From the NCBI GenBank assembly GCA_000004695.1, contig CM000153.2:3584001-3648000 (forward strand): a stretch of 64,000 bases of DNA, in the 5' to 3' direction. The first letter of the stretch is position 1; the number at the start of each line of letters is the position of its first letter. Both the position numbers and the translations under genes were made by a program. The notes under the pieces were generated by a model that worked only from the letters and a program-made list of their open reading frames with translations, had not been told where the DNA came from and did no database searches. The stretch is from Dictyostelium discoideum (Eukaryota). Positions 48,345 through 48,535 of this stretch are shown here, one piece after another.

Positions 48345-48535
48345 ACACCAATCAGAGCCACATGATTGCTGCACACCAGGTAACCAATGCTTCCCAGAAA
48401 AAAGGAAATTCAAAACAAAGTGTAGACACTCGTCATGCAATAAGTTCCTAATTACCAATCACCTCAGAAGACATGAGGAGTGCTTGTCTCATAAAAATAA
48501 TAAATGTAAAGACCAATTTTGCTAAATCATTATCT
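48345..48535. other. GC-enriched island (about 40-45% GC against about 15% background) with overlapping short ORFs on both strands; candidate small ncRNA or small Cys-rich protein gene
   Basis: caccaatcagagccacatgattgctgcacaccaggtaaccaatgcttcccag ... acctcagaagacatgaggagtgcttgtctc contains a 5-bp stem CCTCA/TGAGG and a Sm-like AATTTTG. Track ORFs 48220..48525 (plus) and 48255..48458 (minus) overlap in different frames. Confidence 0.3.

Follow-up and report, generated by a model that had tools for sequence, protein, structure and literature searches.

Dictyostelium is a major model in host-pathogen biology, and we know of no virus that has been described for it. In a literature search, virus-like elements of Dictyostelium were not the subject of any paper; Polintons are mentioned for D. 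fasciculatum and P. pallidum (PMC3671162). Two described systems are closest to the locus examined here. Mriyaviruses are 35–45 kb in size, encode a major capsid protein (MCP), an ATPase, VLTF2/3, RuvC and an HUH endonuclease and lack polymerases, and VLTF3 is undetected outside the Nucleocytoviricota (Yutin et al., 2024, PMC11253617). Fragments of viruses related to the Nucleocytoviricota are also found as endogenous viral elements (EVEs) in protists such as Acanthamoeba (Maumus and Blanc, 2016, PMC5203793). We have studied a GC-rich island at positions 48345–48535 of a 64,000-nucleotide stretch of the Dictyostelium discoideum genome, which we call the window. An earlier note on this DNA had proposed that the island is either a noncoding RNA gene or a gene for a small Cys-rich protein. 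We consider it very probable that it is instead what remains, after truncation, of a gene with zinc-finger-like features that belonged to a virus-like mobile element, a young, eroded endogenous viral fragment.

The island contains a Cys-rich plus-strand reading frame, and the peptide encoded by positions 48337–48522 (62 amino acids) was used as the query in an exhaustive phmmer search of 1.84 billion representatives. Four matches were obtained. The closest is P0121, a hypothetical protein of 133 amino acids from another D. discoideum assembly (GCA_054859385.1, contig JBTAPF010000023.1 of 47,163 bp; locus L005), with E = 2.3e-23 and 77% identity over 62 of the 62 query residues. P0124 (164 amino acids) gave E = 1.2e-6 and is 45–47% identical to the island peptide; this protein and two near-identical members of its cluster come from D. 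cf. discoideum, where the gene is present in several copies. P0121 and P0124 are also recovered by a profile search, and among about 15 billion proteins the P0121 family is restricted to the D. discoideum species complex. At the level of DNA, positions 48330–48522 align by blastn with L005 10057–10249 at 85.5% identity over 193 nt, with no gap. The family has 13 invariant Cys and His residues, and the island fragment keeps all 13. The differences from P0121 are distributed 7:11:10 over the three codon positions and fall in 7 synonymous and 14 non-synonymous codons. This even spread, with the Cys and His residues intact, fits a fast-evolving gene in which most of the divergence may have preceded a recent insertion. 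The other two matches, P0122 and P0123, are highly repetitive ENA metagenome proteins with E~1e-8 against the island peptide. They match over short stretches (query residues 7–42 and 18–54; ...PHQSGTPGNQ... and ...CRSFLTNPVQKH.LCLSH...), and we regard them as spurious, probably translated repeats.

The homology covers the middle of the parent gene. The fragment, at 48331–48522 on the plus strand, corresponds to P0121 codons ~20–83 (~22–83 of P0124). Nothing in the window copy corresponds to the initial ~19 codons of P0121, which comprise its ATG and its first finger, and the plus frame has no in-frame ATG, with only a poly-T run upstream, back to a GTG at 48220. The truncation at the 5′ and 3′ ends and the lack of a start codon identify a pseudogene fragment rather than a gene for a small protein. 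To judge from its sequence, the island in all likelihood gives rise to neither a protein nor an RNA of its own, since the start codon is missing and 62 of the 133–164 residues are covered. The suggestion of a small Cys-rich protein was therefore well founded in one respect, in that protein homologues identify the frame as a true ancestral coding frame, but what is left of it is a fragment without a start and not a gene.

The homologues sit in syntenic clusters with genes for a VLTF3-like factor, a capsid protein of double-jelly-roll (DJR) type and an A32-like packaging ATPase, a combination characteristic of viruses related to giant viruses. Four loci were read over 16–20 kb each (L005, 1–20402; L006 and L007, 1–20495; L008, 1–16416). 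D. cf. discoideum has at least three copies of a virus-like cluster of >20 kb. L006 and L007 lie ~630 kb apart on contig JBTAPH010000036.1 of GCA_054859205.1, while L008 is found at the end of JBTAPH010000039.1. Each copy carries the VLTF3-like gene, a gene for a 414-amino-acid capsid-like protein, the A32-like ATPase gene and a RuvC-like gene, and nearly all the other genes are without a Pfam match. The capsid genes of the three copies are 100% or 99.8% identical, indicating that the copies have multiplied recently.

The individual assignments are as follows. The 470-amino-acid protein of L006 matches Pox_VLTF3 (PF04947) with E = 1.4e-5 and 25.4 bits against a cut-off of 25. The VLTF3-like open reading frame (ORF) of L005 (5728–6318, minus strand) scores 25.0 bits against the same cut-off of 25 and is 47% identical to the VLTF3 of the L006 locus; the VLTF3 profile gave no match in the PDB. 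The 414-amino-acid protein matches Capsid_N (PF16903), a domain of NCLDV-type major capsid proteins, with E = 5.3e-5 and 23.3 bits against a cut-off of 24, and its best PDB match, the sole one by profile, is PBCV-1 MCPv3, at a C-terminal jelly-roll motif. A 362-amino-acid protein has a weak precomputed match to Pox_A32, and Walker-B and RH-type motifs are visible in its sequence. A 190-amino-acid protein that starts MIIIGIDPGIVNFA has a sole PDB match, the RuvC-family resolvase Ydc2 (1kcf), at E = 0.18. The genes common to L005 and L006–L008, at 29–55% amino acid identity, are VLTF3, the capsid homologue (30%), the zinc-finger gene and a large downstream gene. From these sequences the D. cf. 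discoideum clusters have the appearance of an integrated virus that has multiplied recently; it would be related to the Nucleocytoviricota and possibly mriyavirus-like, and the family to which the clusters belong seems to be undescribed. Close relatives persist on a 47-kb contig in another D. discoideum isolate and as the three or more copies in D. cf. discoideum, and the near identity of the capsid genes of these copies suggests that the elements have been active recently or still are.

Some further features of these loci were noted. At 2028–2591 of L006, on the minus strand, an ORF of 187 amino acids contains FHLTINT, HSHTLIE and YIKK in the order typical of HUH rolling-circle endonucleases; these motifs were read by eye, and Pfam finds nothing in this protein. 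L005 carries a divergent relative of the same element. Its capsid homologue has 259 amino acids (16778–17557, minus strand) and may be truncated. L005 also encodes a 2OG-Fe(II) oxygenase (AlkB-like, E = 4e-18; 16152–16730) and a GRF zinc-ribbon protein, and its contig of 47,163 bp is near the size of mriyavirus genomes.

Is the island present at the same position in related genomes? The locus was compared with two D. cf. discoideum genomes (L002 and L003), with D. purpureum and with one other D. discoideum sample (L001). The glyoxalase II orthologues are 96% identical in the two D. cf. discoideum assemblies and 67% identical in D. purpureum, in which the locus is not syntenic. The alignment with L002 covers window positions 44001–48272 (90.0%) and 49194–52785 (91.0%), and the 922 bp between the aligned flanks correspond in L002 to 286 bp of unrelated AT-rich DNA. 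In L003 nothing resembling the island is found at the orthologous spacer, and homology of the host DNA can be traced to ~48330 (the stretch ttggaataaa...aatcttt). L001, a Logan contig from an independent D. discoideum sample, contains the block with zero substitutions and with microsatellite or homopolymer indels only. The empty site in both D. cf. discoideum genomes thus marks a block at ~48331–49193 as specific to the D. discoideum lineage.

This lineage-specific block (48331–49193, ~860 bp) separates the promoter of glyoxalase II from the 3′ end of the host gene upstream, which is on the minus strand; the left junction of the block, at ~48326–48331, was read by eye. It is collinear with L005 10057–11633 (~1.5 kb), with internal losses. 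The zinc-finger gene fragment at its left end is followed by a stop codon, TAA (48523–48525), and a deletion scar, placed together at 48523–48555 by DNA comparison with L005. Clear homology ends at 48522, and tblastx gives weak residual homology to 48544. At the scar ~700 bp of the L005 arrangement is gone (roughly 10250/10271–10983), which would hold the 3′ parts of two convergent genes. The second of these is a minus-strand gene for a protein of 103 amino acids that begins MEEIEQQQQYQEAEFKVLLD in L005. The window retains its start as a 33-amino-acid ORF (MEEVEQQQQHQEAEFKVLLD...) at 48534–48635 on the minus strand, the first ~25 codons of which are homologous to the N terminus of the 103-amino-acid protein. 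A local DNA alignment matches this ORF to L005 from 11060 downward, the ~60 bp upstream of the ORF also align with L005 at the start of that gene, and the two genes keep the same relative order and orientation in the window. The 33-amino-acid ORF has coding-like codon usage and differs in L001 by an in-frame CAA indel; a database look-up gave no record for it or for a neighbouring ORF of 290 amino acids.

The remainder of the block begins with an element-derived AT-rich spacer or promoter between two divergent small ORFs (48636–48779), which aligns with L005 ~11061–~11190. The second of these ORFs, at 48780–48992 on the plus strand, encodes 70 amino acids (MENMNMNKELIQQQ...); its codon usage resembles that of host coding sequence, and its ATG stands in a good context. 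It has no detectable homologue, and its sole Pfam match, to Tho2, is sub-threshold (17 bits, cut-off 23.1). The ORF is missing in D. cf. discoideum, is recorded as a called gene only on two short Logan contigs, and may be an orphan gene that was carried in by the element. Further to the right, a TATA-containing motif of 50–60 bp (AAAAATCTATAAATAGCACAnnCATGCCC...TTTGGCAnTTTACAAAA; 49034–49093, plus strand) is shared with L005, where it lies upstream of a 105-amino-acid gene. The window contains it once (expected 0), and so does L005, at 11402–11414. Where the window has the 70-amino-acid ORF, L005 has 3.5 tandem copies of a 31-bp unit (GTAGATATTTTCAACCTAAATTTTTAAGTGG) at 11277–11387, just upstream of the shared TATA-like motif. 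These copies form TTCAACC...GGGT(T/A)GA palindromes, and could be iterons, an origin or a regulatory array.

The history of the locus would then be as follows. Once the D. discoideum lineage had split from the D. cf. discoideum lineages, virus-like DNA would have inserted into its glyoxalase II upstream spacer, either as part of an element or as an entire one that deletions eroded afterwards. The survivors would be the ~860 bp that contain the middle of the zinc-finger gene (the island), the scar, ~25 codons and the promoter of the neighbouring gene, the 70-amino-acid ORF and the TATA-like motif. We infer that transfer was from element to host because two element lineages that have diverged keep the gene at a conserved position, truncation is seen in the window copy and the sister sites are empty. 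The parent element probably belongs to the relatives of giant viruses, and the locus hints that such relatives have integrated into this model amoeba. For the fuller proposal, that the island is the footprint of an undescribed small virus lineage related to the Nucleocytoviricota (mriyavirus-like) that integrates into social-amoeba chromosomes, we would put the chances at about even.

A number of observations weigh against the interpretation of the island as a dead viral fragment. The frame is open and all 13 conserved Cys and His residues are kept, and the chance that 14 replacements would all have avoided these residues is ~0.02 by a hand calculation. Intact Cys and His residues would be expected also of a domain that is still used; they are best explained by the youth of the insertion. 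Across the 20 kb of the parent contig (L005) that was read, nothing corresponds to the 70-amino-acid ORF. The viral nature of the parent is deduced from Pfam matches at or just below threshold and from weak PDB matches. Pattern-limited scans of IMG/VR with the capsid protein, the capsid alignment and the VLTF3 alignment found no relatives, nor did a pattern-limited scan of the JGI metagenomes with the capsid alignment, and a 21-mer common to the island and L005 was found in neither IMG/VR nor the JGI metagenomes. The sister comparison covers two genomes, together with the one other D. discoideum sample.

What gives the island its unusual composition? The window is AT-rich in the manner of D. 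discoideum, with a mean GC content of 21.95%, and positions 48345–48535 have 36.6%. In 100-bp windows the GC content is 5–9% to the left (48200–48349) and 13–14% to the right (48650–48799). The earlier note's estimate of a tripled local GC content is borne out against these immediate flanks, but the excess over the window mean is just 1.7-fold. The island stands at about the 94th percentile of the 191-bp windows, comparable to many exons. The GC maximum of the window (up to 49%) is at 27827–30073 on the plus strand, in an ordinary host ORF of 748 amino acids rich in Gln, Ala and Pro. As the highest-GC stretch is of this kind, GC islands of such size are usually exons here. The parent gene has a GC content of 37–38%, compared with 29–34% for other element genes and 22% for the host. 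The island is therefore GC-rich because its parent gene is GC-rich. Its composition is inherited, and it would be too recent to have drifted to that of the host.

The plus-strand Cys-rich frame is open over the entire island and ends at the TAA at 48523–48525. Within 48331–48535 the minus-strand frames contain 3, 4 and 6 stops, and the other plus-strand frames 9 and 1, the latter in mid-island. The overlapping ORFs that had been described in three frames and on both strands thus reduce to one frame that is open throughout, the other five being interrupted, and no minus-strand frame is equally open as had been claimed. The chance probability of one stop-free frame of the six across 205 nt is ~0.04 from shuffles. 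The codon usage of the open frame is not host-like.

Other genes were looked for in the island. Three consecutive minus-strand ORFs in different frames might have formed a frameshifted or intron-containing gene; this was rejected. A conceptual protein of 112 amino acids joined from the three had no homologues in the search and no paralogues in the window, and a 62-amino-acid join of the first two showed no similarity to the 70-amino-acid ORF. The second and third pieces are simply the gene fragment of the plus strand read in antisense or out of frame. The end of a 5′-truncated non-LTR (long terminal repeat) retrotransposon, suggested by the Cys/His motif, was dropped after the homologues appeared. 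A scan for a tRNA-targeted TRE retrotransposon by way of its target found zero tRNA genes in the window, and a Pfam scan of all the island peptides found no significant match.

A structured noncoding RNA gene (like those for small nuclear, small nucleolar or Class I RNAs) or strongly constrained regulatory DNA was the preference of the earlier note. The GC content does differ sharply from that of the flanks, and a 5-bp hairpin and an AAUUUUG-like site are present, but the evidence in every test runs the other way. At gathering thresholds no Rfam 15 family matched anywhere in the window (U1, U2, U4, U5, U6, snoRNAs, SRP and RNase P/MRP included), and within 48100–48800 the sole match at E<=10 was a chance one to a structureless long noncoding RNA model (13 bits, E = 2.5). 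Folding was compared with dinucleotide shuffles, giving z = −0.24 for the plus strand and +0.55 for the minus strand, so that neither strand folds better than its shuffles. The hairpin CCTCA-n7-TGAGG exists, but the 4 perfect 5-bp stems of the island, where 1.4 are expected, do not exceed chance (P = 0.07), and in L005 the arm TGAGG has become CGAGG, uncompensated. The Sm-like AATTTTG is also there, but as one of 47 copies in the window, and it is not kept in the closest homologue, where it reads CCAAAATTGC (AAAATTG). The Dictyostelium upstream sequence element (DUSE) reportedly has the consensus [AT]CCCA[CT]AA and lies ~60 nt upstream of the transcription starts of small nuclear and Class I RNA genes. 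The window has 4 DUSE-like matches where 9.8 are expected; those nearest the island are at 38864 and 57193, and none is within 9 kb of it. Conservation is likewise wanting, as neither of the two sister genomes has the island at its orthologous locus, and protein homology accounts for the sequence as coding DNA. As far as sequence analysis can go, a structured RNA or regulatory element would appear to be refuted, and we hold it to be extremely improbable. We think it very unlikely, too, that the island is a functional plus-strand gene for a small Cys-rich zinc-binding protein. Such a gene would be expected to have the open frame and to keep every family-invariant Cys and His, including a complete C-x4-C-x11-H-x5-H unit, as observed. 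But the poly-T run that extends upstream to the GTG at 48220 supplies no in-frame ATG, glyoxalase II on the opposite strand is immediately upstream and leaves no space for a 5′ exon, two parts that both homologues have are missing (the first finger and a conserved CxPCYKPET segment at the C terminus), the codon usage is not host-like, and the differences from P0121 fall evenly over codon positions.

The direction of transfer could also be questioned. The zinc-finger gene and its neighbour would then be host genes, with the window copy a decayed paralogue from a segmental duplication, or the source from which the element captured them. The confinement of the P0121 family to the D. discoideum species complex is in keeping with this, and taxonomy alone would not tell against a host origin. 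However, the divergent element of D. cf. discoideum has a 45%-identical homologue at the equivalent place, next after homologues of the 616/332-amino-acid genes in the downstream direction and in one cluster with VLTF3-like and capsid genes, so that the gene is an old resident of the element family. The window copy, on the other hand, is truncated, and the sister genomes have an empty site where it lies. A host origin is accordingly a most improbable reading of the locus. The main residual alternative is that the relic has been exapted at the level of RNA or regulation, either through small transcripts driven from the element promoter at 48636–48779 or through an effect of the block on glyoxalase II promoter activity. 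A minus-strand transcript from this promoter could encode the 33-amino-acid ORF and run antisense through the island as a long 3′ untranslated region. The two small ORFs have host-like codon usage and start codons, the promoter-like spacer and the TATA motif are kept, and the block is 160–250 bp upstream of the glyoxalase II start codons. But the 33-amino-acid ORF covers no more than the initial quarter to third of its 103-amino-acid parent and ends in the scar, the minus strand of 48320–48650 folds less stably than its shuffles (z = +2.56), and the sister lineages would express glyoxalase II without the block. We therefore regard exaptation as unlikely, and prefer the explanation of the island as a viral gene remnant.

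Turning to the protein that the gene once encoded, a finger-like motif C-x4-C-x11-H-x5-H (KCRHSSCNKFLITNHLRRHEECLSH) can be read from the translation at 48421–48492 on the plus strand. The first finger of P0124 has TFIIIA and GLI C2H2 fingers as its sole PDB sequence matches (E = 0.28–4.3). An AlphaFold2 model of P0124 from a five-row alignment, of low confidence with a mean predicted local distance difference test score (pLDDT) of 46.8, has a strand-strand-helix arrangement at the residues equivalent to the island motif. In the Pfam scan zf-C2H2 gave no match even at E<=10. The sequence suggests that the unit retained in the island is a C2H2-like zinc finger.

The neighbouring glyoxalase II gene is on the minus strand, and the island does lie upstream of it, as the earlier note had stated. 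Its exon 1 starts from the ATG at 48095 or from an in-frame ATG at 48172, an intron occupies ~47850–47920 and the stop is at 47211. The ATG at 48172 is 78 bases (26 codons) upstream of that at 48095 and would add MSKIFSNFKSTNNLKRFYFKNNNINK. A similar in-frame extension is present in D. cf. discoideum L002 and interrupted in L003, and the extra ATG could provide an alternative start or a targeting peptide.

The recognition of a dead gene fragment explains the odd composition of the island and removes a false noncoding RNA candidate. As a feature of the window the island is ordinary. Its value lies in pointing to integrated elements with capsid, packaging-ATPase and VLTF3 genes, a family found in assemblies that were deposited recently for the D. 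discoideum species complex. If the elements are confirmed to be virus-derived and recently active, small relatives of giant viruses would gain a host that is easy to work with, and their integration could be studied in it.

How does the locus compare with known systems? The genes for Dictyostelium small nuclear RNAs, Class I RNAs and box C/D small nucleolar RNAs resemble it as short islands of higher GC content within AT-rich intergenic DNA. The island differs from them in having no covariance-model match, stable fold, upstream DUSE or conservation, and is explained as coding DNA. The family's likeness to TFIIIA-type C2H2 fingers can be seen in the first finger of P0124, which has the pattern Y/F-x-C-x4-C-x3-F-x5-L-x2-H-x3-5-H. 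The island finger (C-x4-C...H-x5-H) keeps the F and L positions, but the spacing between its second Cys and first His is 11 rather than the 12 of the pattern C-x2-4-C-x12-H-x3-5-H. Also unlike C2H2 fingers, the family has extra conserved Cys residues (CC...C and C...C..C), suggesting more metal sites.

The parent element can be compared with the Mriyaviricetes (yaravirus and gamadviruses), a likeness that is drawn from gene content alone and concerns the parent, the window fragment itself saying nothing on assignment. The parent clusters similarly have a short DJR-type capsid protein (414 amino acids), an A32-like ATPase and VLTF3, together with a putative RuvC-like protein (GIDPG... N terminus) and a small protein with HUH-like motifs, the RuvC (PDB E = 0.18) and HUH (motifs read by eye) assignments both being weak. 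No polymerase is found in the 20 kb read, and the D. discoideum contig is 47 kb. In contrast to the Mriyaviricetes, VLTF2, SF3 helicases, a PDDEXK nuclease and a minor capsid protein were not identified in the 16–20 kb read per locus. The elements are moreover integrated, in multiple copies in a host contig of 2–3 Mb, where integration is unmentioned in the description of the mriyaviruses (PMC11253617).

The window block itself can be compared with the fragments of Nucleocytoviricota-related viruses that are endogenous in protists such as Acanthamoeba (Maumus and Blanc, 2016, PMC5203793). It differs from these in being tiny, ~860 bp with parts of two or three genes, in having no hallmark gene within it, such that a viral origin is visible only via its homologues elsewhere, and in its host, Dictyostelium, for which no report of such elements was found. 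In other respects it is like them. The block is lineage-specific and compositionally atypical. It is homologous to a gene that elsewhere lies beside capsid, packaging-ATPase and VLTF3 genes, and the window copy is truncated, without a start codon, and absent from the orthologous locus of close relatives.

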